Assembly (NCBI GenBank): GCA_018819405.1
Contig: JAHJQF010000001.1
Span: forward strand, 973,377-1,035,212
Length of the DNA: 61,836 bases
Direction of reading: 5' to 3'
DNA from: Patescibacteria group bacterium
GTDB lineage: Bacteria; Patescibacteriota; Patescibacteriia; UBA1558; GWA2-36-10
The position numbers and the translations under genes are program-made. Under the pieces are notes generated by a model. That model worked only from the letters and a program-made list of their open reading frames with translations. It had not been told where the DNA came from and ran no database searches. Shown here one piece after another: positions 1 to 14,928 of this stretch (positions are counted from its first letter, which is position 1; each line of letters begins with the position of its first letter).

Positions 1-294
1 AGCCACTGCCACCACACCCCGACTAGCAATAGTCTTGATGTGAGCGCCACTCATACCGACCACCATTTTGTCTATTCTTAATCCGGTCATCCTCTCGCAT
101 TTTTCAATTGTTTCGGAAATAACCGAAACAGCCTCTTCAACCGAATTGATAGAGCCTCGTATCACACCCTGAGATGGAGTTTCAGCCGCGCCAATTATCT
201 TGAGACGACCATCGGCCAAACGTTGACCCATGACAATCCTGACGGCATTTGTACCGACATCCAGGCTAGTAATAATATCTCGATTAGTGGCCAT
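1..294 (-). CDS. ftsA: Cell division protein FtsA, N-terminal fragment (gene runs off the window edge)
   Basis: Own translation of the minus strand from ATG at 294: MATNRDIITSLDVGTNAVRIVMGQRLADGRLKIIGAAETPSQGVIRGSINSVEEAV... It has the DVGT phosphate-1 motif of actin-like ATPases and a typical FtsA N-terminus. Absent from the ORF track because it is truncated. Confidence 0.75.
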   Translation of the reverse strand, partial: MATNRDIITSLDVGTNAVRIVMGQRLADGRLKIIGAAETPSQGVIRGSINSVEEAVSVISETIEKCERMTGLRIDKMVVGMSGAHIKTIASRGVVAVA

Positions 295-362
295 TTATAG
301 ATTAAAAATTAAGACTTATAATGATTAATTATAACTAAATAATGTCTTTTTGCCAAATATTT

Positions 363-713
363 TTACCATAAAAATACTATCAAACCAATAGCAGCCGCAA
401 AAAGACTAGCTAAAAGCACCATAGCGGCCAAAAGATCTTTTATTTCCTTGGCAAAATTATGTGTCCTAGGAGCCAGCATATCCACAAGTCTTTCAATCGC
501 CGAATTGAATATCTCTAAGGACATAATAAGAGCTATTATCATCAAAACTACTACCCAATATACTTTGTCCAAATCTTTATACCAACTATAGGCAATAACA
601 ATGATAGCTATCAAAATATGTAACCTAAAAGTTTTTTCTGTTCTAAAAACTGTCTTTAAGCCACGCCAAGCGAATTTAAAATTTCTATAAAACTGCCAAT
701 CCAACTTATTCAT
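363..713 (-). CDS. dgkA: Diacylglycerol/undecaprenol kinase (prokaryotic DAGK family)
   Basis: 116 aa with three hydrophobic helices and the family motif SLEIFNSAIERLVD. It sits next to ybeY, which is the common arrangement. Confidence 0.85.
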   Translation of the reverse strand: MNKLDWQFYRNFKFAWRGLKTVFRTEKTFRLHILIAIIVIAYSWYKDLDKVYWVVVLMIIALIMSLEIFNSAIERLVDMLAPRTHNFAKEIKDLLAAMVLLASLFAAAIGLIVFLW

Positions 714-718
714 AAATT

Positions 719-1141
719 CTACTTATTTAACAAAGTCAATATTTCTTCTTGTTCCTTATTTTGTTTTTTTTCTTCAGCTAGATTTTTTTCATGATCATAA
801 CCCAAAAGGTGTAATATGCCGTGGACTGTCAAAAGCTGTAGTTCTGATTTGATGGTTTTTTTGGCTTGCTTTTTGGCCTGGTCTAGACAAATCAAAACTT
901 CACCCAAAATATCTTTACTATTTATTTGAAAAGATAAAACATCAGTTACTTTATTTTTGTTTCTATAAACATGATTAAGCTGTTTTATTTCTAAGGGCGA
1001 CAATAAAGCAATGGAAATTTCTTTTTTTAAATAAAATCTTTTTTTAAATATCTTTTCCAGATTTGCTAGCCATGAGAAATCAGCTGACAATCCTCTCTTA
1101 TCAATAACTATTAAATTAGTTTTCATCTTCCAACCAGACAA
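719..1141 (-). CDS. ybeY: rRNA maturation endoribonuclease YbeY
   Basis: Zinc motif HGILHLLGYDH near the C-terminus. The true start may be the internal MKTNLIV at 1126. Confidence 0.9.
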   Translation of the reverse strand: MSGWKMKTNLIVIDKRGLSADFSWLANLEKIFKKRFYLKKEISIALLSPLEIKQLNHVYRNKNKVTDVLSFQINSKDILGEVLICLDQAKKQAKKTIKSELQLLTVHGILHLLGYDHEKNLAEEKKQNKEQEEILTLLNK

Positions 1142-2222
1142 AACTATTTAACATCATTTCAAAACTACTATCAAAATAATTTGATTCTTCATCAAGACCC
1201 AAATCATAAGATATCAAATATATAAAATCCGAACTAACTGATAAAACCATAGTTCCGTCCAAAAGCCTATAAGCCGGGCGCCCGCCCAAACTATAATTTT
1301 CAAAATTCAAATTTCCACCTATAGTCGGTACCAGCTCCTGATAGGCCTGCTCCAAAGTTAAATTAGTGTCATTTGCCGTAGCTGATATCAAAAATGATTC
1401 CCCGCTTTCTGAATCCGGTATTACGGTCACCTGGTCAAGAGAGCCAGCCAAACCTTCGGCTAACCATTTACTTGGTCTAAAAAAAGTATAATCATAAGGA
1501 TTATTTATAAATTTAGTAACCAAGCTCGAGTCTACTAATTTCTGATTTGGTAGCAATGGATTGTACAAATTCATTATTTCTTGTCCATCACTGAAACCAT
1601 CACGATCAGTGTCTTTTAGGTTGATGTTAGTGTTGTAAGTCAATTCTTCTTCATAACTTAATCCATCATCATCAGCATCTATATTTTCTGGGATAATAAC
1701 CGTTGTATTGGTGTTTTGGTTGATATTGACGTTGGTATTTGTATTGACGTTGGTATTGACGTTGGTGTTTTGGTTTTGATTGACGTTGGTGTTTTGGTTT
1801 TGATTGACGTTGGTGTTAACGTTGGTGTTTTGGTTTTGATTGACGTTGGTGTTAACGTTGGTATTTGTATTGACGTTGGTGTTGACGTTGGTGTTTGCTC
1901 TATTTTGACTAATAAACCACAAACCTCCGGCTACCACTGCTATCACAAACATAAGAATAATAATAGAAATCAAAGCTATTTTCTGGCCACTACCCATGCC
2001 TTTTTTTCTGGGTTGACCTCCAGGGTTGGTATGGTTCTGAGCAACAAATTTACCCGGCATAGCATGGACAGTAATAATCTCTTTTTTTGCCCCCACTTCT
2101 CTTTTTATATCATCAATAGTGGCTTTTTCATTGTCTAAATTACCAGTTGTCATTGGCTTTACATCATCTTTATTGGCCAAGTGGCTAAATACCCGACCCT
2201 TTGACTCTCTTTGATCATTCAT
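1116..2222 (-). CDS. Single-pass membrane/surface protein with an (N-T-N-V)n spacer and thrombospondin-type-3-like Ca-binding repeats
   Basis: 368 aa. A cytoplasmic N-terminal region is followed by one TM helix (IALISIIILMFVIAVVAGGLWFI). Then comes a long NTNVNTNVNQNQ low-complexity run, then DADDDGLSYEEE and DTDRDGFSDGQE motifs, then a C-terminal globular region. Confidence 0.7.
   Translation of the reverse strand: MNDQRESKGRVFSHLANKDDVKPMTTGNLDNEKATIDDIKREVGAKKEIITVHAMPGKFVAQNHTNPGGQPRKKGMGSGQKIALISIIILMFVIAVVAGGLWFISQNRANTNVNTNVNTNTNVNTNVNQNQNTNVNTNVNQNQNTNVNQNQNTNVNTNVNTNTNVNINQNTNTTVIIPENIDADDDGLSYEEELTYNTNINLKDTDRDGFSDGQEIMNLYNPLLPNQKLVDSSLVTKFINNPYDYTFFRPSKWLAEGLAGSLDQVTVIPDSESGESFLISATANDTNLTLEQAYQELVPTIGGNLNFENYSLGGRPAYRLLDGTMVLSVSSDFIYLISYDLGLDEESNYFDSSFEMMLNSFVWLEDEN
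1706..1894. repeat. Coding tandem repeat (12-nt units ttgacgttggtg/a in higher-order units of about 36 nt) encoding the NTNV/NQNQ spacer
   Basis: Units such as gttttggttttgattgacgttggtgtt recur back to back. The region lies inside CDS 1116-2222. Confidence 0.85.
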
Positions 2223-2235
2223 AATTTTTTTTAAT

Positions 2236-3183
2236 TTAGCTTTGGTTAGTGTTTGTGTTTGTATTATTATTTATATTACTATTTTCATTAGTGCTGGTGG
2301 CATTCTCATTTAAACGGCCTTCTCCATTAGGATTATAACCATTTAAAACTTCCGAACCATCTGCAAAACCATCACCATCAGTATCAATATTGTTTGGGTC
2401 GGTCTTCCAAATACGAACCTCCTCATAATCTGTCAGGCCATCCATATCTGAATCATCTGATAGTGGATCGGTAAAATAAATTTCTACTTCATCCTGGTCA
2501 AATACTCCGTCATTGTCAGTATCTGGATCAAACGGGTTGGTACCCAATTCTTCTTCTTCCTTATTAGTCAGGCCATCTGAGTCATCGTCCAAATTTTTTT
2601 CATCAACCACCGCCTCATTGGTGTTGATGTTTTCATTGTTATTGATATTTTCATTGACCATCACCTCATTGGTGTTGACGTTTTCATTGTTATTGATATT
2701 TTCATTGCTTACAATAACAGACTGATTTAATCTAGGCATAATCACAAAATAATACACCGCCCCTCCAATAATTGCCAAAAGCAAAACAACTGAAACTATC
2801 ACTATTATTTTTCTCATTGGTCCCGAATTATAATCGGCATTTATGGATTGTGGTGGCCCAGCTAGTGGTGAAGGAGCTTCGGCCGATTTTGAAGGCTCTT
2901 GAGTAGTTGGCATTGTACTGCTAGAAGGCAGTCTGGTCTGTGAAAGAGGTTTTATTTTGCCAGATGCTACAGCACTTGGTTTTTCCACTGCCGGACTTGG
3001 TCTTTCGGGTGTAGGATCAACATCGCCAAACATGTCATCAATTTTTCCTGCCATAGATGGTGCAACTGGGGTATTATTTTTGGCTGTTTGGGAAACAATT
3101 GGTGTCTCAGGCATGACTGGTTGACTAGGAGATGAAACAGGTGTCTGCCCAGTTTGACTACTGTCTTTTAAATCATCAAACAT
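2236..3183 (-). CDS. Single-pass membrane/surface protein with a Pro-rich N-terminus, an Asn-rich repeat spacer and several thrombospondin-type-3-like repeats
   Basis: 315 aa with TM helix IIVIVSVVLLLAIIGGAVYYFVI. A duplicated 17-aa unit NENINNNENVNTNEVMV / NENINNNENINTNEAVV follows. TSP3-like motifs are DDDSDGLTNKEEEELGTNPFDPDTDNDGVFDQDE, DDSDMDGLTDYEE and DTDGDGFADGSE. Confidence 0.7.
   Translation of the reverse strand: MFDDLKDSSQTGQTPVSSPSQPVMPETPIVSQTAKNNTPVAPSMAGKIDDMFGDVDPTPERPSPAVEKPSAVASGKIKPLSQTRLPSSSTMPTTQEPSKSAEAPSPLAGPPQSINADYNSGPMRKIIVIVSVVLLLAIIGGAVYYFVIMPRLNQSVIVSNENINNNENVNTNEVMVNENINNNENINTNEAVVDEKNLDDDSDGLTNKEEEELGTNPFDPDTDNDGVFDQDEVEIYFTDPLSDDSDMDGLTDYEEVRIWKTDPNNIDTDGDGFADGSEVLNGYNPNGEGRLNENATSTNENSNINNNTNTNTNQS
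2613..2707. repeat. Two tandem 51-nt coding repeats (cctcattggtgttgaYgttttcattgttattgatattttcattg)
   Basis: The copies at 2613-2656 and 2664-2707 differ at one position. The region lies inside CDS 2236-3183. Confidence 0.85.
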
Positions 3184-3211: not shown

Positions 3212-6200
3212 TTATGGTTCTAAAGTACAATCCATATGTGCATCACCATTTCCGTCACAGAAACTAGAGTTGATAACCTTGATAGTCTGAGCAGCCCAAC
3301 CTGTAACCTCATTGGTAAATAAACCACCAGTGTCATCGGCTAATCTTTGTCCAATATCATAAATAGGAGTAAATCTTCTCAGAACTGGACTAATATGTAC
3401 AGCCGGATCAGATAATCTGGCCGCTTGTGAGGCTGAATAGAGAACATCAGGTAAACTTGCATCATAATCTTCGTTTTCATGAATAATTGAATTTCCTCCG
3501 CAATAAGCGGCTTCATCAGATACTGGAAGTACCACTCTCTGGTATCCAGGTTTCCAATTATACCCCTCTATAATTTTACTAATAGCATAACCCCAGTTTT
3601 CCAAACGTCCGGCAAACTGATCAGAATTATTGCTATGGCATGCTTCATCAAAATCTGGTATATCACCATTTATAGTGACTGGCACATTTATATCATTACT
3701 TGTATTGTCATAAAAGCTCAAATACCTAACCTTTGGATAATTTACATTATCATTTAATGCACAGTCTGTATAAAGAGCTCTAAATACCTGCAAAGCTTCG
3801 TCCAGCCAGCCACCGTTATTAGGGAATATAGATTCAATATCATCAGCATCATCATCCGTCAGATACACAGGTGTATATGGACGATCTGGTGTGTCGGTAC
3901 CATCACTATCGTCATAAGCCACTCCTCCATCATTGTCACCCAGTACATATATAGTAATACGATAGTCAATCTCCTGATGATCCTCCTCTAAATTTGCAAC
4001 CACTCCCTGAGTAGCAGTACACAATGCTTGCGCATCACCTCTCATACTGCCAGACATATCAAAAACATAAACTAAATCAATATTTTTTTCTATTTCATAA
4101 GCTGGATCAAATCCAGTGTCGCAGTCTTCATAGCTCTGGACTACACCATCTCCGCAGTATCCCCCGGTATTTAGACAGTCACTACACTCATATTGGAAGC
4201 TGGGGTCTGAAAATATAGTAATATTATCTCTCTGACGTGGCCATGGATAAGAAAATTCTGGATCAGCCACATTCCAATCACAGCCTTCACCAAATAGAGT
4301 TTGTTGGATATTATCTCCACAATAGCCACCACCTGAAGCACTCTGTTGACATCTATTATTACTCGTCATATCACAAGTATAAGTACGGGTGAAATCAGAT
4401 TCTGCCGGAGTCGGCCTGTCGGGATAATCAAGGCCATCACAAATTTCATTGTAATCACTCTGTACTTCGCCGTCTCCACAGTAGCCACCAACACGGCCGT
4501 CACAATCATAATCATCACAGACATACTGATTTATTAGAGAAGTCTCATTTGGAGAATAGAGGTCGCCAGCTATAGCAGGATCGCAGGTTTCTTCATAAAT
4601 ATCTTGAATAAAACCATCACCACACCAACCCGCTTCAGTGGCAGTACAGCGACCATAATCATTGCCAGTGTCAAAATCCCAAAAAATACCAGACATACGG
4701 CACTCATATTGATTAAATTTTGAAGAATATTCTGGCAGAGGCGTTTCATAGTTGGTATCACATATTTCCTGAAAAGCATATTCTAATATTCCATTACCAC
4801 AATAATCACCCGTAAATTGGCACTGATTGCTGCAAGTGTATGTATTGGCCGGACCAGAAGTATCTGGACCGGGCGCCACATAACCAGCATAATCACACTG
4901 CTCTTCTGGAAAATTTACTTCACCATCGCCACAGGCTCCAGTATAAGGATCACCGACAGTACATTCTACCACACAACTATTACTACAACGCACAGCCCCG
5001 CCCTCTGTACAATCCCAAGTGTCCAAGCCATTAGGATTGGCACTATTATCACACTCTTCTACGCCGGGTGTCCAAATTCCATCTCCGCATAAAGCCGCCG
5101 GATATGAGCCCCCATCACCCGTACACATCACTTGACAACCACTACAACTGATAGAATCTCCATCATCACAAGAATACCCAGACGGCAGATTGCCATCACA
5201 ATTTTCATAAAAAGTTTGTACTGCGCCATCGCCACAATAACCTCCACACTGGCTAGCAGTAAATGGTGCTTGGGATCTATCTATAGGATACCACTGACAA
5301 CCAATAGAGTTGCCGACTGAGTCAAGTGAACCAGGAGGATAGCAACCAATAGTCTGCTCATTCCACCAAGGATGATTGCCATTGGTAAGAATATCCGGAT
5401 TAGAGTTGGGAGCATCTTGAGAGCAAGCATAAGACCAAAAGTTACCATCACACTCCTCTTGAACCCAACGTCCGCCAGAATTGACACAATCAACAGAATT
5501 ATCACAATTAGGGCAAGAAATTGTACAATATGGTTCTGTATCAACAATGCCATTACCACAGTTTGGCCAAGCAGCTGCTCCTGGAGAATTTTGTACTGCA
5601 TCATCACAATATATACCCAAATCGGACGCTAAACCATAAAGAGTAGACCAGCCTGACGGTACAAGACTACTGGCAAAAGTAACACCGCCAGTATCATACA
5701 TATCATATTCAAAATTAGCTCGTAGAGTAAAACCTCTACCAAAATCAAGCGAGTTATAATAATAGATTAAAGAATTTGTCGGACAGAAAAATTCTAAAGT
5801 TGATTCAGACCAACAGGTATCTGTATTATACGGATCACTACAACCATCTATATTAAAACGATTTATAGGGTCACTTGGGATAGACATACCCAAAGCACTT
5901 CCTAATGTAGCTGTCCAGGACGGCCAGCGACTATTTGTCAACCCTTGTAAATATGAACCAGCGTTCAATGGTGGGTATTGTTTTATACATTCTCCCCCTG
6001 GACAATCCGTAGAGTCATTACAGGATATACTACTATCATAGCTACAGCTGGCATGCGCCTCACCGTATGACATAATAGATCTTTGTATAGCTATCAAATC
6101 TGAAAGCCTCTTGGTGTCACGTCGTAATTTTAATTTCCTAGCCTCACAATAATCATTTTCTCCTGGACAATCATAATCTGTAGAGCAGGATAAACCGGAA

Positions 6201-9200
6201 ATATTACATATATTAGCTGTATTTTCTGTAATGTTTATATTTAGTTTAAAATTAGAAACCATTTGATTAAAAATATTTATAGTACTTGGCCTAGCCCCTA
6301 TATTGTGAGCTATTATATAAATATTTGTGTATATATTTGTAGTTACGTTACTAGCAGCAATATATAAAGTGTTGCCCACTTTCAGTGCCTCATAACCATC
6401 AATTGATACTAGAGAGCCTGTATCAGATGGATTTGGGGCGTTTTTCAAATACCAATCCATTACTGATAAGTGCTCTGAATTTTGTATCACTCTAATACCA
6501 ATAATATCCACCAAGGAATGACTGGCATTAGTATATAAGGTGATTGGCCCAGCCCAATTCGACGATGGAAAATCATCACAAGTGTTGCTTGTGGCCGCTA
6601 TCCTATAGCGGTATTCTCTATCCAGTTCCAAATCTTCAGGATCAGTCCAAGAGTTAGCACCAGCTGGTGCTGTAGCATAATTTTGCCAATCAACATCATC
6701 ACCAATCAACATTCTTTGAACTAAAAACCCGCTGGTCGGTCCATTAAGATCTGGATCATAGTTTGGTTGATTCCAAGATAAATGCGCATTTATACCATCA
6801 AATGTGATGGCAAAATTACGTGGCGTAACTGGACCGCATAAAAGCACACCATCTTCAAAAGCAAAGGCTGGTTTATTAAACAATTTAGTAATTTTTTGCC
6901 AGACAGACTCTTTTGTCTCTGTCTGATAATCATCATAATAAGCCAAACTACCAAAAGCATTAGTACCAGACTTAACTGTAAGATAATTTATTGTAGAAAT
7001 AAATTCACGATATACGTCAGGATCATCTGGATTATTTAATGAAGGAATAGCTAAATAAGGTAATATATTATCACCTGGTAAGCCTGAGTACTGGCAATAA
7101 TAAGTGGAAAAATTGGTACTAGGCATCTCCGGATCAGTCCAAGGATAAGAAGATAAGTTTGGCCATGGCTCTTCACAAAGCATCACTTCTACCAAAGCAG
7201 TGTCTCGGACTATATGCCCTGGATCATCTGTAGAATTTTCTACATCAACAGACAATACAGCTTGGCCATTTGTAGGTTGGGCAGTACCGTCTGTCTCTTG
7301 GTCACTGTCTAGCACAGAAAATACTACATCATCACTAAGTTGGGTAGAATCCCAAGTATAATCCAAAAATGTACCCGACAATATCGCACCACTAATATCA
7401 TAAACAGTAGCTATATAAGTATGTTGATTTCCGCCAATAGCCGGACGGCTATCTCCCGGACAATTATTAATTCCCGCACAATTAAACAAATCACTATCAA
7501 TATATAAATCATTGCGACTTATATCTGCACTGTGTACCTGACAAATACGGTCCCCAGCTGTAAACATCCATCCCAGTCCTCCCATTGGGGTGGTAAATAA
7601 TCCAGTCGGGTCAAGTGATACGCCATTGACACTAACAATAGCATCAGTATTAGCAAAAGAAATCCAATAATTCAAGTTTGGATTAAGATTTATATCCGGA
7701 TTAAACATAGCCTGAGTACCATTGGTAGTTTCCCTAAATGTCCAAGTACCAGTTACTTCACAAGTGCCGGCACATTCTTCATAAAAACGACCTTGCGAGA
7801 TAATACTAGCTCTATTCATAGTCTCGCTAAATTCTATATTTGGAGCAATATTGAGACAAATATTGGTCTCAAGATGATCAGGATTGATATCCACCACCTC
7901 TGGCGTCGGATATACAACAGGACCGGAGATTATAATATTAATATCTCCTGGGTCAGTGGATACTGGAGGACTTGTCCCCTCAGCTACTGTAACATTTACC
8001 TCCGTATGTTCACCGCCTACTAATGGTGGTGAGGAATTAGTGGTAACATCAGTTGTTTGAGTCAACGGACTACTAAACACAGCTATGTTTGGCGTGTCAA
8101 AAAACCAATTGTAGTTACAAGTAGGACAATTTATGGGCTCTTCACCACAAACCACGCTGTCATGGATAGTCTGTGCTATATAGTTACCCAAAGGCTGACT
8201 AGCTCCAGCTGTGACATTTTGTGGTTCTACTCTAGCCCTATCAACTCCGCAATCAGCGGCACCAATACCAAAAGTATAGGTATAACCAGCGCCATTGTAT
8301 AAGAAGCTTAAATCTGTATTTTGGATAGTACCATCTAAAACCACTCTGTAGTCATGTCCGAGCACAAACGGAGTATGATCTATCAACACTTGTCTATTTC
8401 CAATTGTAGTCAACAAACCGGTAATTTCTGTGCCTAATGTGTCATCATAGATATGGTAATTACCAGGCAGTGAGACGGTTCTTAAATCTGAATTAAAATA
8501 TATAGTAACATCAGCATTGCTACATGATCCATCACAATCTGGATAATGATTGGTCACAAATAAAGGATCCACAGTGCCGGCTGTATCTATTTCAAACACT
8601 CCACTATCAGGCTCCACAGTGTCTCCATGTTCATTTATCAAATTAACCATTACCTCAACTGTACCAGCATCTGTAGTCTGATTGTCCTGTACCTCTACAG
8701 ATTGCAAAATATTGGAACCAACGATAGAAGCAAACCCGTTGGAAAGGCTCCAATCATAAGTACAAGCAGTACAATCAAAAGTTACGTTACTACATTCTTC
8801 ACTGCTCCAGGTACCATAAGCTTGATATACCCAAGATTCGCCTGGCGTAGTAATGCGCCTGTAATCAGGACTTACCAGTGCTCCCGTAGCAAAACACTCA
8901 CTGTCGCCTGTACCAAAATTCCAATTTATGTCACTCCTTAATACACTTCCGTCAATTCCCTCAATGCCAGCTGGGACCGTGACCGTAAAATTATCATTTC
9001 GGCCAATGCCAGTATAATTAAGTTTTATACATTGAGGATTTGATGGCCCCATCCAGTCCGCACCATTAAAATGTTCACCTGTAGCGGCGCTAAGTATAGA
9101 AAATCCAGTGGCTGGTATACTGGTTGACTCTACATCTTTATCAAAACAGACTCTGACCAAGGAAGTAGTACAAACCGCTCCGCAAGTTGGCTCAACCAAT

Positions 9201-12200
9201 GTATGATGTAAGTCAAGATCCAGTGCGTTGCCTCCACTTACATTGATGGTCAAATTAGTGCTAGCGCTAGCCGGACCATAGTCACCGCTTATATCCAAAT
9301 CTATAGGCGCCGTACCATTTGGGCCAAGAGGACGCGCCCAAACCTGCCTAGCACCTGTATCAAGTGTAAAATAAGTAGCTGGTTCATCAGTGCTCCAAGT
9401 ATAATTACAAGGACCATCATCACACTGTATAAAATCTGCTCCGCAAATTCCAACTTCTCCATAAGTATAAGCAGTATACAATATGTCATTTAAATTGGTG
9501 ACCGTCAGTCCATCCGGACGTATATAAGCACCGGCCAGCTCACAATTTTCATCGCCGACTGAAAAATTCCAAGATTTCTCAGCTCCCAAAGAATAACTAT
9601 ATGTATTTATCAAATCTGCTGACAATATTACTTTATAATTTTCTTGGGGTATAAAATCAATATGATTTATAGTCAATAATTCATCAGATATTGTATAGCC
9701 ATTTACATAATTTAAACTATTGTCATAAGTGTTGCAATTTGTATCTGTACACCTATAAATTGCTATTTGATCAGGATATGTGCCGTCAATATCAATAATA
9801 CTGTCAAGCTGAGTTGAAAATATGGCCCAAACTCCGGCATTAAGACAAGAATCATTACATCTTGGTCCATAATCAAGTAAACTGAGTGTTGGAGCCAAAA
9901 TCATAGACTGCGATGTACCACTTATTGCAAAATCTAGATTTTGGGCATTGATGCTTGCATAGTTTGGATCAGGCAAAAACTGAGTAGCATTTGGACCACC
10001 CTGCATTATATTGTAACCTCTATTTATATTTTCATTATCTACATCATTAAGAAGCAGTGTGGCATAACTGGCAATCGGAGCCGGATCAGGATCCAAAGAC
10101 CAAGCCCAATCATAATTACCACCACAAACATTACAATTATCAGCTACTGGCGTAGAATAAAATTCTCTCTCAGACCCTACATATATATCTGAAACATTTC
10201 TTTGCGGGCTGACTACTACATTAGACACCTCACAGATATTAGTATCATTTCTGACTCTAAAATACCAATCAAAATCTGGATCTTCCATGGTAGGATCCCA
10301 AACATCACCGCCCCAAGATGACTTAAATGATCCCAACACTACTCTGTACCATCTTCCGGCATCTAGCCTAAAAGCTTCGTCTAGACCTGGATTAAATTCT
10401 ACACCCTCTCTACTACTATTATGATTTATAATACTTAAATTCCCATCTAAAGAAGTAACCTCACACGATCCTGGAGCAAAACCAGTTAAGTCAGGATCAT
10501 GGTTACAGGCATAAACTCTAAAATTGTCAGAGTCCAACAAATCGGCATCTACAACATTTCTGGTAAACAAAATTGAAATATTAGCATCAGTAAATGCATC
10601 TACAGATGACGGATAAGAAATAAATCCCGTAACAGCGTCTTCCCACTCATGACCATCAGGCCAGGGTGATGGGGACTGTACATCAGTATCACAATTATAA
10701 TTATAATGAATACCAAAAGGATCATCTTCAGTATAAAAATTCCAAGAATAATAACAAGCATTTATATCCACACCACAACTGTCAGTACAATAATCTCCGG
10801 TTGCCTCCGGACAACAGACATAAGACTCTCCATAAGCTGCCTGGCAAGATTCAGTGTTTTGACACTCACCAACTGCAAAATTTACTTCATTACTTGTATC
10901 TCCGCCCGAATCTTGGACATAGACTGGTCCTGTGACAGCTCCAGCTGGCACAGTGAGATTTAATACCTGATTGTCATTCCAACTGGCTGGCGGTATTACT
11001 CCGACAGATTGTTCGTTGTAAAAATATACACTGCCAGGAATAGCTCCAAAATTTTCACCAAAAATATCTACATCATCATAACCGGCCGGACCGTTGTTTG
11101 GATCAATCAAACAAATCCCAGGTGCCGGATCACCAGACTGTATTTCAAACGAATATGACTCACTGATAGCCGAGTCTGACCCCCTGACAACCACCACTTC
11201 ATAATTTGTATCCAAAGTCCAGGCAGCCTCCGGTACCTTGACTAGTATCTGACTGTCTGACCAAAAACTATCACCACACATTACCGGGAAGGAGTCATCT
11301 CCTCGGACATTCAAACCCGACGGGTCAAATCTGACCTCACCTGAACTGCCAAAGCCAGAGCCCATGATAGTAATATATTGCCCGACCGGGCCGCCGGCTG
11401 GTGATATCTCATTTATAATAGGTAGCCCACCCGAAGAAATAATAGCAGTAAAAGGATATGGGTTACTAATTTCTCCAGCGTCAGTATGCATAGTTACCCC
11501 AAAATAACCGGCTACATTTGGCACCTCAGCAATAGCATAAGTACCAGGTGGTGTAACATCTGTGACACTGGTGTCATAGCTGACGACCGTATCAAAATAA
11601 GCTTGGTCAGTAGTTTGAAAACCAATACCATCTATAGTTATATCCTGGCTATAATATCCTTCGCTGTCGCTTAGAGCACAGATACTTGGTCGGATAATCG
11701 TATCATTTCTTTCAAAGGGATAAGGATCTGATTCCAATCCACCAACTGCAGCACTCTGGACCACTGTCAGATCTCCGACACCAACTACAGCATCAGCCGG
11801 TACCCCAATTATTATATAGTTATTTGTCCAAATATTTACACATGACCCATTGCTAAGATAAGAAGGTAAATCACCTTCAACCCAACCTGGACCTGCTAGT
11901 GATTCAAAACGAACCACACCCATATCATCACCAAAATTATAACCAAAAATAGTTATCAAATTACCCACTGCCCCATCTTCTGGCGTAATATTTTCAATAA
12001 CAGGCGCATCATCTCCTCCTGTGCCACTACCAGCTGTACAGACATCTTCTTCTAGACACGAGTAGTCTGCATAACAACAACCAGAGGCACAATTACTGTC
12101 TGTATCACAAAGTACAACAAAAGGAAGTGAATCCCACTCTGTGCCAACTGTCACTGTCACCTCGCTGGAAATGGCATTTGGCAAATTGGCCAAATCAAGA

Positions 12201-13168
12201 GGCACATTCATATTAATTTGAGTATCTGTCCAATCTCCTATTCCTAGTCCTAAAGTAGTATTATCCAATGTCACTACCGCTGCACCATCCCAACCTTCCA
12301 TAGAAATATTTTCCTCAAAATCAGTAAAACCGGTGCCCGTTGCCTGGACATCAATACTGGTCCCACTAAATGCTTCTTCAGGAGATAAACAATTTAAATT
12401 TAAAGTAGCCAGTCCTGGAGTAACTACAAATGAAATAGCGTCATCGGTAATATTTCCCAAATCATTGGTCAAAAATACATCATAGACCCCCTCAGCCAGA
12501 GTATCTGGCACCCTAACTCTGACCCAAGTATCTTTCCACTGTGGATCAGCACATACCACTAACTCGACAGTAAATCTTGTACCGCTTGAACGCTCCTCCA
12601 ATTGCACCATACCAAGACTATCCGGACTGCTATTTCCACTTACTGGCAACCTATCAAAGTGATAACCATAAATTGTCAGGTTACTTCCGGCTGGTCCGTT
12701 TTCACGATTGAGTTTACAAATACGCGGATCAGTAGTATCTGCCGGTGCATCACAGCCGATCGTACCACCCGGTGGTATTGTAGTACCACCACCTGGACCA
12801 CCAGCCCCCGTTTCATTATATAGTGATTGCAACACAAATCTAGAAATTGCATAAGCTGAGACAATAATTACCAGTCCTATCACGGCGCTGATTATAAGTA
12901 GCTTGGCACGTTGTACTTTGTCGGAATTTCCCTGAGAGGTCATCCACAAGAACCCTCCGTAGAGTATAATCAGTACTGCCAAGATACCCAAAAATCCCAA
13001 AAAGATATTGATTATCCCAGCCACCGTATCTTCTATAGAGCGGCTACCCAAAGCTATATTTGTACTGGCCAAATCATTTATACCAAAAACATCTGAAGCC
13101 AATGCCTTGTGCACAGACACAAACCCTAGAGAAAATATGCTAATTAATACAGAAAATAATTGTCTCAT
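3212..13168 (-). CDS. Giant (3,318 aa) secreted protein: a TrbC/VirB2-like pilin membrane hairpin followed by IPT/TIG, Ig-like modules, FN3, CGDG Cys-rich repeats and a C-terminal vWA domain
   Basis: Uninterrupted 9,957-nt ORF. Signal-like N-terminus ...VHKALA/SDVFG. Two TM helices flank TSQGNSDKVQRAK. Six GPxGxxxxIxGxxFG-type IPT motifs. Modules ending W-x-F followed by CxxCxYxW. An FN3-like segment LSWNQP...YRYRIAA. Nine CGDG/CGNG...CD repeats. MIDAS-like motif DLVYVFDMSGSM. Confidence 0.9.
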   Translation of the reverse strand: MRQLFSVLISIFSLGFVSVHKALASDVFGINDLASTNIALGSRSIEDTVAGIINIFLGFLGILAVLIILYGGFLWMTSQGNSDKVQRAKLLIISAVIGLVIIVSAYAISRFVLQSLYNETGAGGPGGGTTIPPGGTIGCDAPADTTDPRICKLNRENGPAGSNLTIYGYHFDRLPVSGNSSPDSLGMVQLEERSSGTRFTVELVVCADPQWKDTWVRVRVPDTLAEGVYDVFLTNDLGNITDDAISFVVTPGLATLNLNCLSPEEAFSGTSIDVQATGTGFTDFEENISMEGWDGAAVVTLDNTTLGLGIGDWTDTQINMNVPLDLANLPNAISSEVTVTVGTEWDSLPFVVLCDTDSNCASGCCYADYSCLEEDVCTAGSGTGGDDAPVIENITPEDGAVGNLITIFGYNFGDDMGVVRFESLAGPGWVEGDLPSYLSNGSCVNIWTNNYIIIGVPADAVVGVGDLTVVQSAAVGGLESDPYPFERNDTIIRPSICALSDSEGYYSQDITIDGIGFQTTDQAYFDTVVSYDTSVTDVTPPGTYAIAEVPNVAGYFGVTMHTDAGEISNPYPFTAIISSGGLPIINEISPAGGPVGQYITIMGSGFGSSGEVRFDPSGLNVRGDDSFPVMCGDSFWSDSQILVKVPEAAWTLDTNYEVVVVRGSDSAISESYSFEIQSGDPAPGICLIDPNNGPAGYDDVDIFGENFGAIPGSVYFYNEQSVGVIPPASWNDNQVLNLTVPAGAVTGPVYVQDSGGDTSNEVNFAVGECQNTESCQAAYGESYVCCPEATGDYCTDSCGVDINACYYSWNFYTEDDPFGIHYNYNCDTDVQSPSPWPDGHEWEDAVTGFISYPSSVDAFTDANISILFTRNVVDADLLDSDNFRVYACNHDPDLTGFAPGSCEVTSLDGNLSIINHNSSREGVEFNPGLDEAFRLDAGRWYRVVLGSFKSSWGGDVWDPTMEDPDFDWYFRVRNDTNICEVSNVVVSPQRNVSDIYVGSEREFYSTPVADNCNVCGGNYDWAWSLDPDPAPIASYATLLLNDVDNENINRGYNIMQGGPNATQFLPDPNYASINAQNLDFAISGTSQSMILAPTLSLLDYGPRCNDSCLNAGVWAIFSTQLDSIIDIDGTYPDQIAIYRCTDTNCNTYDNSLNYVNGYTISDELLTINHIDFIPQENYKVILSADLINTYSYSLGAEKSWNFSVGDENCELAGAYIRPDGLTVTNLNDILYTAYTYGEVGICGADFIQCDDGPCNYTWSTDEPATYFTLDTGARQVWARPLGPNGTAPIDLDISGDYGPASASTNLTINVSGGNALDLDLHHTLVEPTCGAVCTTSLVRVCFDKDVESTSIPATGFSILSAATGEHFNGADWMGPSNPQCIKLNYTGIGRNDNFTVTVPAGIEGIDGSVLRSDINWNFGTGDSECFATGALVSPDYRRITTPGESWVYQAYGTWSSEECSNVTFDCTACTYDWSLSNGFASIVGSNILQSVEVQDNQTTDAGTVEVMVNLINEHGDTVEPDSGVFEIDTAGTVDPLFVTNHYPDCDGSCSNADVTIYFNSDLRTVSLPGNYHIYDDTLGTEITGLLTTIGNRQVLIDHTPFVLGHDYRVVLDGTIQNTDLSFLYNGAGYTYTFGIGAADCGVDRARVEPQNVTAGASQPLGNYIAQTIHDSVVCGEEPINCPTCNYNWFFDTPNIAVFSSPLTQTTDVTTNSSPPLVGGEHTEVNVTVAEGTSPPVSTDPGDINIIISGPVVYPTPEVVDINPDHLETNICLNIAPNIEFSETMNRASIISQGRFYEECAGTCEVTGTWTFRETTNGTQAMFNPDINLNPNLNYWISFANTDAIVSVNGVSLDPTGLFTTPMGGLGWMFTAGDRICQVHSADISRNDLYIDSDLFNCAGINNCPGDSRPAIGGNQHTYIATVYDISGAILSGTFLDYTWDSTQLSDDVVFSVLDSDQETDGTAQPTNGQAVLSVDVENSTDDPGHIVRDTALVEVMLCEEPWPNLSSYPWTDPEMPSTNFSTYYCQYSGLPGDNILPYLAIPSLNNPDDPDVYREFISTINYLTVKSGTNAFGSLAYYDDYQTETKESVWQKITKLFNKPAFAFEDGVLLCGPVTPRNFAITFDGINAHLSWNQPNYDPDLNGPTSGFLVQRMLIGDDVDWQNYATAPAGANSWTDPEDLELDREYRYRIAATSNTCDDFPSSNWAGPITLYTNASHSLVDIIGIRVIQNSEHLSVMDWYLKNAPNPSDTGSLVSIDGYEALKVGNTLYIAASNVTTNIYTNIYIIAHNIGARPSTINIFNQMVSNFKLNINITENTANICNISGLSCSTDYDCPGENDYCEARKLKLRRDTKRLSDLIAIQRSIMSYGEAHASCSYDSSISCNDSTDCPGGECIKQYPPLNAGSYLQGLTNSRWPSWTATLGSALGMSIPSDPINRFNIDGCSDPYNTDTCWSESTLEFFCPTNSLIYYYNSLDFGRGFTLRANFEYDMYDTGGVTFASSLVPSGWSTLYGLASDLGIYCDDAVQNSPGAAAWPNCGNGIVDTEPYCTISCPNCDNSVDCVNSGGRWVQEECDGNFWSYACSQDAPNSNPDILTNGNHPWWNEQTIGCYPPGSLDSVGNSIGCQWYPIDRSQAPFTASQCGGYCGDGAVQTFYENCDGNLPSGYSCDDGDSISCSGCQVMCTGDGGSYPAALCGDGIWTPGVEECDNSANPNGLDTWDCTEGGAVRCSNSCVVECTVGDPYTGACGDGEVNFPEEQCDYAGYVAPGPDTSGPANTYTCSNQCQFTGDYCGNGILEYAFQEICDTNYETPLPEYSSKFNQYECRMSGIFWDFDTGNDYGRCTATEAGWCGDGFIQDIYEETCDPAIAGDLYSPNETSLINQYVCDDYDCDGRVGGYCGDGEVQSDYNEICDGLDYPDRPTPAESDFTRTYTCDMTSNNRCQQSASGGGYCGDNIQQTLFGEGCDWNVADPEFSYPWPRQRDNITIFSDPSFQYECSDCLNTGGYCGDGVVQSYEDCDTGFDPAYEIEKNIDLVYVFDMSGSMRGDAQALCTATQGVVANLEEDHQEIDYRITIYVLGDNDGGVAYDDSDGTDTPDRPYTPVYLTDDDADDIESIFPNNGGWLDEALQVFRALYTDCALNDNVNYPKVRYLSFYDNTSNDINVPVTINGDIPDFDEACHSNNSDQFAGRLENWGYAISKIIEGYNWKPGYQRVVLPVSDEAAYCGGNSIIHENEDYDASLPDVLYSASQAARLSDPAVHISPVLRRFTPIYDIGQRLADDTGGLFTNEVTGWAAQTIKVINSSFCDGNGDAHMDCTLEP

Positions 13169-13272: not shown

Positions 13273-14928
13273 TTATGGCGTACCAATTGCCCCAGTGCAT
13301 GGTCCTCCCGAACAATCTGGTGTGGTACAAGTGCAAGAATTATCTCCTGCCTGACAAAGACAAGGATACCAACAATTTTGTCTGGAATCTTTAATACCAG
13401 AGCTAAGAGTTGGTGTATATATAGTAGTAGGAGAAAATTTGTCATGATAAATATTTATAACATTTCCCCCACTCAAACCAGTCCAATAATTTAAAGCCCC
13501 GACCGAGCTGTCCAAAGAAATATTACTAGAATTTACTGAACTAGAAAGTAACTCTTCACTAAACTCTACGCTAATTGGTGCGTTGAGGTCGACGTCTGTT
13601 ATTTCTTCCATTTGAGTGATAAAAGGTGGTGTTAAATCCAAAACATTATTGGTGGTAAAAGACCAAACATAATCACTACCAGAGCAACTGGTTCCACAAT
13701 CTAAGACATTACCGGCCATATCAACTATTGCCTCTTCTCTATCCGCCACCAAATCATCAGTAGCTGTGCCTGATACCAGACCATTTATAGTTTCGTCACC
13801 TGGTAAACAAAATACAGAACCGCCGCAAGAATTTTCTCCACAAAATTGATCAGTAATAAACTCTACCGTACGATATTGATTGGATATTGTATAGCGTCCG
13901 CCTAAATTTCCAGAGATAGAACCGCTGACAATGACATTGTCAAAACCATCTGCGGTAAAACCAGCTGCTGAAATAGAATCCACAGCTTCGGAAAAATTGA
14001 TCTGCACAGCACTATTTTTTGGATTATTTGTTGATCCATTAGGAGGCACAATATAAGTCACTGTCGGTGGAGTCAAATCAAGCTCAGTTCCTACTGTAAA
14101 ACGCCAACTATAAGCCCCGCTGACAAAAGCACCTGTGCCGGCTAATGTCTGGATATTACCTAATTGCATAGTATGTCTGACATCAGCACTAGGACTACCC
14201 AGATAAGTAGTACTATCGCCATATGGATTTATCAAAAATTCATCCTGACCCTCTCTGGTGGTCGCATTGTAAGGAATAAAAATAATCGGCAAATCAACTC
14301 CTGTAATTGCGTCAGGATTACCTTGAGCCAAAAGACTTATATAATCTGAATTAACTACACAATCAACACCTGGTGTGCAAGCTGTATCTTCTACCATGTA
14401 GGCAATATCAATCGGCTCCTCAAAAGTCAGATAAATATTGGTATTTCTTGGCACACCTACTGCATCTCTAGGAGGATAGTGGCTCTCCAGTGCCCCAGCT
14501 CCCAAACCCACACCACCAATAGCTCCCCCGCCACCTGAGCCACCACCTGTACCAAAGGTATTATCATAGCCTTCACGCAGGACAAATCTGGCTATGGCAT
14601 AAGAAGACAATACTATAACAAGACCAATCACACCATTTATAATTATCTTCTTAGCTCTATCAATTTTTTCGGTGTTACCTTGGGATGTCATCCATATAAA
14701 TCCACCGTATAGAATTATCAAAGTTGTCAAAATCCCCAAAAATCCCAAAAAGATATTGACAATGCCGGCAATAGTTTCTTTTAGGTCTTTTGTACCCAAA
14801 TTTACACCGGACGAAGCAAAATCATTGACACCAAATACATCGGCCTGAGCAGGGGCGCTCAAAGACAACAAAAAAATAACTGCAAAAAAGAAAATAAATA
14901 ATACAGTTATTTTTTTAGATTTTAGCAT
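13273..14928 (-). CDS. TrbC/VirB2-like pilin-domain protein followed by bacterial Ig-like (SbsA/Big_5-type) domains and a Cys-rich C-terminus
   Basis: 551 aa. The N-terminus (signal, DVFGVNDFAS, IAGIVNIFLGFLGILTTLIILYGGFIWMTSQGNTEKIDRAKKIIINGVIGLVIVLSSYAIARFVL) is closely paralogous to the N-terminus of the giant protein. Later segments LDLTPPTVTYIVPPNGS...INFSEAVD and LDLTPPFITQ...VEFSEEL. Tail CWYPCLCQAGDNSCTCTTPDCSGGPC. Confidence 0.85.
   Translation of the reverse strand: MLKSKKITVLFIFFFAVIFLLSLSAPAQADVFGVNDFASSGVNLGTKDLKETIAGIVNIFLGFLGILTTLIILYGGFIWMTSQGNTEKIDRAKKIIINGVIGLVIVLSSYAIARFVLREGYDNTFGTGGGSGGGGAIGGVGLGAGALESHYPPRDAVGVPRNTNIYLTFEEPIDIAYMVEDTACTPGVDCVVNSDYISLLAQGNPDAITGVDLPIIFIPYNATTREGQDEFLINPYGDSTTYLGSPSADVRHTMQLGNIQTLAGTGAFVSGAYSWRFTVGTELDLTPPTVTYIVPPNGSTNNPKNSAVQINFSEAVDSISAAGFTADGFDNVIVSGSISGNLGGRYTISNQYRTVEFITDQFCGENSCGGSVFCLPGDETINGLVSGTATDDLVADREEAIVDMAGNVLDCGTSCSGSDYVWSFTTNNVLDLTPPFITQMEEITDVDLNAPISVEFSEELLSSSVNSSNISLDSSVGALNYWTGLSGGNVINIYHDKFSPTTIYTPTLSSGIKDSRQNCWYPCLCQAGDNSCTCTTPDCSGGPCTGAIGTP

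Follow-up and report, generated by a model that had tools for sequence, protein, structure and literature searches.

A predicted giant surface protein headed by a VirB2-like pilin hairpin, and its relatives among the Patescibacteria

We describe a protein of 3,318 residues, encoded in a genome of the Patescibacteria, in which a hairpin that groups by sequence with the VirB2-like pilins of CPR bacteria is continued into a long chain of repeated modules. It is probable, in our judgement, that the product is a surface-exposed, giant and adhesin-like protein held by its pilin-family hairpin. The pilin-headed architecture is not rare; as far as sequence comparison goes, it is that of a widespread and conserved family which does not yet have a name.

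Results

The gene is intact and the fusion is genuine

Positions given here refer to the window, that is, the whole stretch of 61,836 nucleotides that was analysed, and the features are collected in Table 1. Translation bore out the initial annotation of one uninterrupted reading frame for the whole protein. The natural worry about such a gene is that a chimera, or a missed frameshift or stop, has fused a pilin gene with an unrelated large gene. Short pilins usually have 100-150 residues, and one relative has an in-frame TAG farther downstream, both of which would suit an artefact. Against it stand the identical 3,318-aa protein on three contigs, namely an independent Logan assembly of the read set SRR6514730 and two records longer than 1 Mb; a homolog of 3,316 aa that is 68% identical; an alignment to the locus L013 that spans query residues 1-3115 in a single HSP; and the same junction of pilin and stalk in at least 30 further loci. 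With an identical independent assembly, collinear orthologs and a junction kept across loci, chimeric assembly was rejected and the fusion taken as genuine. The artefact explanation is effectively refuted, and the chance left to it is negligible.

Table 1. Features of the giant gene and of its neighbours, with positions in the window
Feature	Position	Strand	Basis
Whole gene: predicted pilin-headed giant surface protein, 3,318 aa	3212..13168	-	single ORF
Signal-like peptide, aa 1-24 (...HKALA/SD)	13097..13168	-	hydrophobicity scan; aligns with short-pilin signal peptides
VirB2-like pilin hairpin, aa 42-115, two TM helices and basic loop WMTSQGNSDKVQRAK	12824..13045	-	PF18895, NF045849
Junction and Gly-rich linker, aa 116-138 (SLYNET-GAGGPGGGTT...)	12755..12823	-	alignment with short pilins
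Six IPT/TIG-like modules, aa ~139-770	10859..12754	-	PF01833, NF058597, six motif starts
Ig-like stalk, aa ~771-2100, with Big_5 within a repeated unit	6869..10858	-	PF13205; jackhmmer self-repeat search
FN3-like segment, aa ~2114-2199, sub-threshold	6572..6829	-	PF00041
Domain X, aa 2216-2530, without known family or fold	5579..6523	-	ortholog conservation; AF2 model
Nine Cys-rich CGDG...E.CD repeats, aa 2537-3025	4094..5560	-	regex count
Divergent vWA-like distal domain (probable), aa 3026-3318	3215..4093	-	motifs, AF2/Foldseek, hhalign
Upstream partner, 551 aa: pilin hairpin, Gly linker, two Big_5, Cys-rich tail	13273..14928	-	PF18895, Big_5
Downstream gene, 315 aa: single-pass membrane protein, Asn-rich spacer, TSP3 Ca-binding repeats	2236..3183	-	PF18884 64.8 bits
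Second downstream gene, 368 aa: single-pass membrane, NTNVN-type spacer, TSP3-like motifs	1116..2222	-	weak DUF4330

The N-terminus belongs with the VirB2-like pilins

A hydrophobicity scan showed the N-terminal signal-like peptide, with its cleavage site ALA/SD, and two TM helices (aa ~47-78 and ~85-115) flanking the basic loop TSQGNSDKVQRAK, all as first read from the sequence; the one other hydrophobic segment, at 452-470, is weak. The initial annotation gave the T4SS_pilin family as PF18895, which is correct, and the N-terminus scores above its gathering cut-off of 26.6 (31.3 bits for the whole protein and 37.3 bits for aa 1-130, over profile positions 2-71 of 71). NF045849, a "pilin-like conjugal transfer protein" model, gives 40.5 bits with a cut-off of 40. 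The TrbC/VirB2 profile PF04956 stays below threshold (13.4-19.3 bits, GA 27.9), and a profile of the pilin family matched no solved VirB2, TraA or TrbC pilin in the PDB at E<=10. Judged by these profile matches, the N-terminus is a member of the CPR VirB2-like pilin family.

The alignments point the same way. The nearest relatives of the hairpin are pilins of 82-217 aa, at 42-68% identity, and identity with free-standing pilins of 110-140 aa is 60-68%. Every Gly/Ala position that is invariant in the family is retained in the hairpin, and the free-standing pilins stop at ...LYNETV/I, precisely where the Gly-rich linker of the giant begins. At 3,318 aa the protein is of course not a stand-alone PF18895 pilin of ~100-150 aa with a free C-terminus. 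Among orthologs the hairpin is 64-81% identical, the ectodomain 29-35% and the signal peptide 17-54%; the TM anchor encoded by the neighbouring TSP3 gene, taken as a control, is 7-50% identical. The same pattern is found with the relative P0052, at 90% identity in the hairpin and 68% over the full length. The linker varies among orthologs in length and in sequence, from Gly/Pro-rich to Cys-rich, and no conserved proteolytic motif was found in it among the orthologs compared.

Which way does the hairpin face? In 145 family members the loop has ~3 K/R between flanks of net negative charge, and by this positive-inside charge pattern the loop would lie inside and both ends outside. The giant is a strongly acidic chain with all of its 121 Cys beyond residue 138, two traits that fit an extracytoplasmic ectodomain. 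The proposal that the C-terminal region is extracellular, provided that the hairpin has VirB2 topology, is thus backed by charge pattern, Cys placement and acidity.

The ectodomain is a stalk of repeated modules

Six IPT/TIG-like domains had been proposed to follow the linker, and they were found again: PF01833 matches well above threshold (62.1-84.7 bits over four HMM stretches, GA 20.9), and six starts of the type PxxGPxGxxxxIxGxxF occur at aa ~150-770. One of these TIG modules also matches CoaZ_rpt_PGGG (NF058597, 50.8 bits). For the next region, read at first as about six Ig-like modules, the Ig-like character is upheld by Big_5 matches (PF13205, 62.7 bits over two stretches, GA 23.6), and the count is better replaced by a unit of ~215 aa repeated 4-5 times over aa ~1010-1836. 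Self-BLAST found no internal repeats at 1e-3, and a jackhmmer self-repeat search was needed to see the unit, each copy of which is probably two beta-sandwich domains. The FN3 domain of the initial annotation stays below threshold (PF00041 15.8 bits, E 0.017, under the GA of 25).

The region that had been left unassigned, here called Domain X, does lack a family match, and no other ectodomain module of the family is so well conserved: its identity is 44-53% for orthologs and 23-40% for distant family members. Pfam and PDB sequence searches returned nothing for it. An AF2 model (pLDDT 71, pTM 0.70) had no Foldseek match, the best E being 0.07. A KL+RRD..RL.DL helix and then ...LP.DP suggested that Domain X might be the head of a type IV pilin; no Pfam, PDB sequence or Foldseek match was obtained, and this reading is not supported. 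The nine CGDG...CD repeats were recovered by regular expression, with starts at aa 2537, 2645, 2694, 2746, 2790, 2849, 2897, 2950 and 3005; the profiles nearest to them are sub-threshold (DUF4215, PF13948, 16.8 against 27; TIGR02232, 13.5 against 20.8). Pfam and NCBIfam profiles detected no catalytic domain anywhere in the giant.

The distal end is probably a divergent vWA domain

The motif DMSGSM lies at aa 3037-3042 (4043-4060), as had been noted. The vWA domain itself is a more delicate matter. The DxSGS motif, the fold matches and the family context favour it, but every sequence profile fails. The C-terminal 289-309 aa found no vWA match in Pfam, NCBIfam or the PDB, either as a single query or as a six-sequence profile; the VWA families PF00092 and PF13519 gave no match at E<=1, and the sole profile match was TssR_VWA, at E 0.04-0.07. 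An index of 5.8 billion proteins yielded two short homologs of the domain and nothing more. In the six sequences, FDxSGS, PV(S/T)(D/N)E and A.DTGG are invariant, and, as in a MIDAS, DxSxS follows beta-1 and beta-4 is followed by an acidic residue; the MIDAS Thr was not located in the domain. The AF2 model, built from three sequences, is of low confidence (pLDDT 53, pTM 0.60), with a beta-alpha pattern. Nearly all of the top 50 Foldseek matches of this low-confidence model have a vWA fold (best E 7.8e-4, TM 0.32-0.35), with SpaC (6m3y) at rank 13. Comparison with the canonical VWA of orthologs by hhalign gave a probability of 68% over 47 columns.

In the comparison with P0052 the distal end is the most divergent region of the giant (48-56% identity), and the module is exchanged between orthologs, a canonical Pfam VWA standing in the same position in L007 and L011. 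That the vWA-like domain ends the chain is true of the giant; in L005 and L006 the reading frame continues beyond it, and other orthologs have other end modules, one distal type being marked by ...HMVPGA..IW. Taking the motifs together with the model, we regard the distal module as probably a divergent vWA domain of MIDAS type, fast-evolving and exchangeable.

In one relative (L001, L002), an in-frame TAG stands just ahead of the vWA-like domain in two samples, and the module may therefore be dispensable there.

A cassette set among housekeeping genes

The 551-aa partner matches PF18895 (37.9 bits) and Big_5 (80 bits), resembles the N-terminus of the giant (phmmer 2e-41), and is the gene directly upstream of the giant at all syntenic loci. 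Both downstream membrane-protein genes are likewise syntenic in orthologous loci, as is a signal peptidase I gene four genes upstream of the giant, which resembles housekeeping LepB (Peptidase_S26, 152 bits) and sits among HisRS and S21. No VirB4, VirB6, VirD4 or other T4SS gene was found within the 61.8-kb window, where the cassette lies amid housekeeping genes; in a related MAG of the Komeilibacteria, the closest short pilins were likewise without T4SS genes beside them. The giant, its 551-aa partner and the two TSP3-repeat membrane proteins are a vertically inherited cassette of many Komeilibacteria/Parcubacteria-type genomes.

A conserved family without a name

Collinear orthologs, 30-41% identical and with the same housekeeping synteny, occur in at least 24 Komeilibacteria/Parcubacteria-type MAGs. 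In 32 of 78 GTDB loci the hairpin is followed by more than 1,500 aa, and a survey of long pilin fusions showed that, among the 150 best pilin-domain relatives, 32 have at least 1,000 aa, each with one N-terminal hairpin. In the GTDB genomes the family was reached through the pilin alignment only, a peptide-pattern scan with the whole protein having returned nothing. Assemblies that carry a giant also hold short pilin loci (L006 with L024, for example, and L003 with L021 and L025), and tandem and paralogous pilin copies are present in the same genomes. Database labels for family members are "hypothetical" or "IPT/TIG domain-containing". The architecture had been thought uncharacterised, and our literature search found no published description of it. 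VirB2-like pilins as such are widespread in Patescibacteria, and essential in one case (PMC12102498, PMC10633639, PMC12857230); the literature yielded no visualised pilus or filament of PF18895 proteins.

Discussion

How might such a protein be held, and what might it do? In the arrangement that we favour, the Sec-type signal peptide would be cleaved and the hairpin would lie in the cytoplasmic membrane with both ends out, as VirB2 and TraA do, and the whole stalk would therefore be outside the cell. With ~17-18 beta-sandwich modules the stalk might measure ~70-100 nm and would hold the distal binding module out towards a host cell or a surface, so that the giant would be a fibrillar adhesin. 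That it serves in adhesion we infer from the types of its domains. Swaps of the distal module could retune the binding specificity.

Display on a pilus is a further inference. The hairpin is conserved far above what a passive anchor would show, and its similarity to the short pilins equals that among the orthologous hairpins; for both reasons it may still make pilin-type contacts and assemble together with the short pilins whose genes lie elsewhere in these genomes. The F pilus exposes the very C-terminus of TraA on its surface and turns the basic loop towards the lumen (PMC10939261). A cargo of ~350 kDa on an exposed C-terminus should leave the giant unable to form a shaft. It would then occur as a rare subunit, in the simplest case the one incorporated first, and, if the filament grows from its base, the first subunit would stand at the tip. 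We would put the likelihood of the whole chain of reasoning, a giant adhesin on a functional VirB2-like hairpin with the step of pilin contacts and tip subunit included, at a little under even.

Among known systems, the VirB2, TraA and TrbC pilins and the VirB2-like pilins of Patescibacteria share with the giant the signal peptide, the two hydrophobic helices and the short basic loop. The giant differs in having 3,318 aa instead of ~100-150 and in lying outside any T4SS cluster or pilin array; its C-terminus is not free, which rules out cyclisation and a shaft-forming homopolymer. In the FimH and PapG tip adhesins of chaperone-usher pili, and in minor pilins of the CofB/TcpB type, a pilin module carries an appended binding module, and one or a few copies are placed at the tip or priming end. 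The logic is similar, whereas the pilin fold and assembly machine of the giant are unrelated to theirs and its appended part is 10-30 times larger. The sortase-pilus tip adhesins SpaC (6m3y), RrgA and GBS104 resemble the giant in their Ig-like stalk, in their MIDAS-type vWA-like module and in belonging to monoderm cells. Unlike them, the giant ends (...GDAHMDCTLEP) with neither an LPXTG signal nor a hydrophobic segment; lacking the sorting signal it would not be linked by sortase. It is attached rather by an N-terminal membrane or pilin hairpin, and its probable vWA is far more divergent. PrgB and the adhesins of the LapA/SiiE/MpIBP type have a long acidic stalk of beta-sandwich repeats with a distal ligand-binding region; a long acidic repeat stalk, a putative distal binding region and Ca-binding partners nearby recall them in the giant, which has no T1SS signal, RTX repeats or LPXTG and whose anchor is the pilin hairpin. 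A PrgB-like adhesin was not found in Patescibacteria (PMC12102498). In the Omnitrophota, which are ultrasmall host-dependent bacteria, very large surface proteins have been proposed to act in cell-cell contact (bioRxiv 10.1101/2023.11.21.568195); these are far larger, have other domains and lie beside secretion genes of T2SS/T4P-like kind, and no pilin fusion has been described for them (bioRxiv 10.1101/2023.11.21.568195).

One might think that the hairpin is an evolutionary leftover that serves as a membrane anchor. The giant would then be a fibrillar adhesin, or an envelope fibre, tethered to the membrane and unconnected with any pilus or T4SS. The absence of T4SS genes nearby and the vertically inherited housekeeping synteny of the cassette fit this, as do the dispersed short pilins of the clade and the neighbouring cassette genes, which are ordinary single-pass surface proteins. 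A passive anchor would not explain why the hairpin has been held so much more constant than the ectodomain or the TM anchor of the same locus, nor why all the family-invariant Gly/Ala positions are retained, and a cleaved signal peptide with two helices is more than is needed to place a C-terminus outside. We regard such a leftover as possible, with a likelihood well short of even. A different possibility is that the hairpin is a leader for export and membrane insertion, and that cleavage within the Gly-rich linker releases a short pilin and a secreted or wall-bound protein of 3,190 aa. Propilins of the TrbC type are trimmed at the C-terminus, which is a precedent, and here the junction coincides exactly with the point where a short pilin naturally ends, before a flexible linker, with a signal peptidase I gene in conserved synteny. 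The linker, however, is variable in composition and length and has no conserved motif, the signal peptidase has the look of the housekeeping enzyme, and the cassette holds no dedicated TraF-like peptidase; cleavage of this kind strikes us as improbable.

A last doubt concerns adhesion, for the ectodomain could be a structural or enzymatic component of the envelope, for instance a spacer, a fibre associated with the S-layer or a scaffold that binds Ca. The bulk of the chain matches generic beta-sandwich modules only, its most conserved ectodomain module, Domain X, has no known fold or function, and the partner genes carry Ca-binding TSP3 repeats. Yet the distal module is the fastest-evolving one and is swapped among orthologs, in some for a canonical VWA, which is typical of ligand-binding tips and not of scaffolds, and a catalytic domain was not detected. 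We give the structural or enzymatic reading little credence.

If the surface adhesin that we favour is indeed built into a pilus, what would it mean for these bacteria? A bolder proposal, and a rather doubtful one, is that this family provides the adhesin still missing from the VirB2-type pilus system of Patescibacteria, priming or capping a conjugative-type pilus in a monoderm cell, with the exchangeable distal module setting which host cell is bound. Were this true, it would mark the first case of a tip adhesin constructed on a VirB2-class pilin itself. PF18895 proteins, moreover, are not uniformly small, and surveys that treat them as small pilins mis-describe a sizeable minority. For the CPR/Patescibacteria episymbionts, a pilin covalently joined to a giant stalk with a swappable tip would be a candidate molecule for attachment and host range.

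Domain organization of the giant protein

The uninterrupted minus-strand ORF encodes a protein that is strongly acidic (D 9.2%, E 4.6%, K 0.9%), with 121 Cys residues, every one beyond residue 138. The initial annotation had described a single ORF with a signal-like peptide and two hydrophobic helices, and these are seen in the translation and in a hydrophobicity scan, where the only hydrophobic segments are aa 1-24, ~47-78 and ~85-115. The N-terminus belongs to the T4SS_pilin family; the accession that the initial annotation gave for it was correct, and its gathering score is exceeded. NCBIfam NF045849, 'Mbov_0395 family pilin-like conjugal transfer protein', is matched at 40.5 bits (cut-off 40), and TrbC/VirB2 (PF04956) at a sub-threshold 13-19 bits. 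The six IPT/TIG-like domains first annotated were recovered, and the nine CGDG...CD repeats were counted where they had been placed. The Ig-like modules were recovered as Big_5, though within a larger repeated unit instead of as about six modules, and the FN3 match stayed below threshold.

Features of the giant protein, its cassette and related genes (nucleotide positions are those of the window)
Feature	Position	Strand	Evidence or content
Giant ORF	3212-13168	-	3,318 aa
Signal-like peptide	aa 1-24	-	...HKALA/SD
T4SS_pilin (PF18895)	aa 42-112	-	31.3 bits whole protein, 37.3 bits aa 1-130; gathering score 26.6
IPT/TIG	aa ~150-770	-	six motif starts; 84.7 bits, 4 HMM stretches
Big_5	aa 1010-1836	-	within ~215-aa unit, 4-5 copies; 62.7 bits
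FN3		-	15.8 bits, under GA 25
CGDG...CD repeats		-	nine; DUF4215/TIGR02232 matches sub-threshold only
Domain X	aa 2216-2530; 5579-6523	-	
DMSGSM	aa 3037-3042; 4043-4060	-	
Upstream partner gene	13273-14928	-	551 aa: PF18895 hairpin 37.9 bits, Gly linker, two Big_5, Cys-rich tail
Two downstream genes	1116-3183	-	315 and 368 aa; single-pass membrane, TSP3-type Ca-binding repeats
Two PsbP_2-like genes	26574-27662; 55949-56992	-	C-terminal PsbP_2-like domains; one also with TSP3 repeat

The hairpin as a pilin module

Is the hairpin a pilin? In a 5.8-billion-protein index, the 49 proteins most similar to aa 1-130 are all Patescibacteria pilins of 82-217 aa, at 42-68% identity. These short pilins terminate at ...SRFVLQSLYNETV/I, where in the alignment the giant reads ...SRFVLQSLYNET-GAGGPGGGTT.... 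Because they stop where its Gly-rich linker starts, the giant is, judging from this alignment, a pilin extended beyond its natural C-terminus via a flexible linker. Across nine syntenic orthologs identity is 64-81% in the hairpin, 29-35% in the ectodomain and 17-54% in the signal peptide; in the adjacent TSP3 protein, our control, the single TM anchor has 7-50% identity versus 52-63% for the globular part. The comparison marks the hairpin as a genuine pilin module, more than a mere anchor. Since in 145 family members the inter-helix loop has about three K/R and the net charge on either side of it is negative, we predict a loop-in, N-out/C-out topology. In F pili the far C-terminus of TraA is exposed at the surface and the basic loop faces the lumen (PMC10939261). 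In its topology, a C-terminal extension thus fits residence in the membrane as well as incorporation into a filament. The sequences of the solved pilins VirB2, TraA and TrbC do not match the family profile, so that the link to classical pilins rests on Pfam/NCBIfam membership and architecture.

Ectodomain and distal end

Module mapping across 30 or more family members finds the TIG, Ig-like and Cys-repeat regions to be common to the family. The most conserved ectodomain module is a segment that we call domain X, with no Pfam or PDB sequence match; its AF2 model (13 sequences; pLDDT 71, pTM 0.70) finds no Foldseek match (best E 0.07). Its motifs are an invariant RD..RL helix and S.W.SW / DP.N.

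The initial annotation ended the chain in a vWA domain. For the last ~290 aa, sequence-profile searches of Pfam, NCBIfam and the PDB gave no match, but the DMSGSM motif is present and FDxSGS, PV(S/T)(D/N)E and A.DTGG are invariant in the domain among six sequences. The AF2 model (3 sequences) is poor (pLDDT 53, pTM 0.60), with beta/alpha alternation. Almost all of its top 50 Foldseek matches are vWA folds, though weak (best E 7.8e-4, TM ~0.33): integrin beta I-like and alpha I, vWF A1/A3, Sec23/24, TFIIH p44, collagen VI, TRAP, NorD and the pilus tip adhesin SpaC. At the equivalent position Pfam VWA_2/VWA scores above threshold (39-45 bits) in the orthologous loci L007 and L011; seven more members have this canonical type, which hhalign relates to the giant's type with a probability of 68%, and solely in the beta1-MIDAS-alpha1-beta2 segment. 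Motifs, weak fold matches, canonical orthologs and hhalign together indicate that the distal end is probably a divergent vWA.

Conservation in the giant declines from the hairpin to an exchangeable distal end. Relative to the closest homolog (3,316 aa), identity is 90% in the hairpin, 68% overall and lowest (48-56%) at the distal end, and only about ten of the mapped members have a DMSGSM-type end. Some orthologs carry a canonical Pfam VWA/VWA_2 and then a '...NP.Y.FC.W.NC.WC' tail, and others terminate in an unrelated module of '...HMVPGA..IW....IYCRY' type; the distal module is swapped in L007, L011, L012, L008 and L010 (C-terminal ~500 aa) and in L003, L015, L032 and L050. In L005 and L006 the ORF continues for >190 aa beyond the vWA-like domain and contains additional Ig-like repeats there. 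A vWA-like domain is thus not terminal throughout the family. An in-frame TAG stands for a Leu codon directly before the VYVFDMSGSM strand at L001 879-881 and L002 202-204; this relative (54% identity) is present in two different metagenome samples. Gene callers consequently assign its vWA-like domain to a protein of its own (P0050, 290 aa). The TAG could be a pseudogene mutation, a polymorphism or a read-through codon.

The cassette and its neighborhood

At least 24 loci share the gene order of the window, namely Pth - EngA - LytR / signal peptidase I - HisRS - S21 - YqeY - pilin+Big_5 (~550 aa) - pilin-giant - TSP3-repeat membrane protein - second TSP3-like membrane protein - YbeY - DAGK. 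The 551-aa pilin fusion lies directly upstream of the giant in all syntenic loci, and the two hairpins match at E 2e-41. Downstream, the 315- and 368-aa proteins, syntenic with the giant, have long Asn/Thr/Val-rich spacers, and the repetitive NTNVN-coding DNA yields false terminator-like matches at 1719-1889. The PsbP_2-like genes are similar to the 368-aa gene of the cassette and may form with it one paralogous envelope-protein family. Loci with the cassette are titled Candidatus Komeilibacteria, Parcubacteria, Falkowbacteria and 'Patescibacteria group' MAGs. TPA_asm MAGs titled 'uncultured Gammaproteobacteria' (L012, L015, L017, L019, L020, L032 and others) also bear the Patescibacteria-type locus and pilins, so these taxonomic labels are probably wrong. 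The remaining window is housekeeping (GyrB, PheST, UvrD-like helicase, ATP synthase, MetRS, ClpB and others); no VirB4, VirB6, VirD4 or type IV pilus gene, and no tRNA, was found within its 61.8 kb.

A proposed role and its alternatives

How might such a protein work? After Sec export and signal-peptide cleavage, the hairpin would insert N-out/C-out, and an extracellular stalk of ~17-18 beta-sandwich modules, domain X and Cys repeats would present the predicted metal-dependent binding module, making the giant a fibrillar adhesin; it is the domain types that suggest adhesion. The hairpin would retain pilin-type contacts and join short pilins as a rare subunit, probably incorporated first and hence at the tip; a homopolymer of giant subunits is sterically implausible. 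Two observations support this view of the hairpin: its conservation is that of a functioning pilin, unlike an anchor, and close short pilins are encoded elsewhere in the same assemblies (e.g. L006 with L024; L003 with L021/L025; L013 with L030/L033). At L024 (a Komeilibacteria MAG) the closest short pilins form a three-gene array, 9463-10745, whose neighbors are polysaccharide-synthesis genes, a solute-binding protein and DUF2079.

One might think instead that the hairpin only tethers the giant to the membrane, as T4SS genes are absent beside the L024 pilins as well as from the window; nor does the literature on Patescibacteria pilins offer a demonstrated PF18895 pilus, a further weakness of the filament reading. 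We consider a mere tether rather unlikely, given how much better the hairpin is conserved than the TSP3 protein's anchor. Cutting of the pilin part from the remainder at the linker is improbable: orthologs differ in how long the linker is and in what residues make it up, and they share no conserved cleavage motif. There is an equally slim chance that the stalk is a non-adhesive envelope fiber. A chimeric joining of a pilin to a large gene, raised in the initial annotation, is extremely improbable and was rejected. Three contigs carry the identical protein with the same neighbors (two are records >1 Mb, and the third comes from the Logan assembly of SRR6514730, which was made independently); the 3,316-aa homolog, on an ENA contig, aligns end to end; and by BLASTP orthologs are collinear end to end at 30-41% identity, L013 in one HSP spanning residues 1-3115.

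As an incorporated pilin, the giant would be closest in its working to tip adhesins in which a pilin module is joined to a binding module, and to the vWA-tipped sortase-pilus adhesins, and similar to fibrillar adhesins in general. Without an LPXTG motif, it does not qualify as a sortase substrate. It is a PF18895 pilin by N-terminal score and architecture but not a small stand-alone one, and at the profile level it is not a VWA family member.

Spread of pilin fusions

How widespread are such fusions? A pilin-domain alignment searched against GTDB, one genome per species, gave 78 loci; in 32 of them an ORF begins with the hairpin and continues beyond it for >1,500 residues, and several such ORFs run off the 10-kb flank at >3,300 aa. 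When 1.84 billion cluster representatives were searched exhaustively with aa 1-130 by phmmer, 34,215 matched at E<=1e-3 (7,086 at E<=1e-10). The initial annotation had proposed surveying fusions of >1,000 aa: among the best 150 of the 34,215, a sample skewed toward relatives of the query and not a family-wide rate, 32 have a single N-terminal hairpin on chains that reach or exceed 1,000 aa, the longest being 4,223 aa, and nine more are of 500-999 aa. In a further subset each chain has 2-17 hairpins in tandem; in P0060 (1,775 aa), P0083, P0185 and ~50 other proteins these are continuous, with no signal peptides between. We know of no description of this 'poly-pilin' architecture.

Databases name the giants only 'hypothetical protein' or 'IPT/TIG domain-containing protein' (e.g. 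MDD5749252.1). The literature on PF18895 or Patescibacteria pilins treats small pilins and pilin arrays, with no mention of pilin fusions; no PrgB-like adhesin was detected in Patescibacteria (PMC12102498), and a giant-gene survey of Omnitrophota (bioRxiv 10.1101/2023.11.21.568195) does not cover the family. The giant represents a widespread family that this literature does not describe, in which the chain of a conjugative-type pilin continues covalently into a giant adhesin-like stalk.
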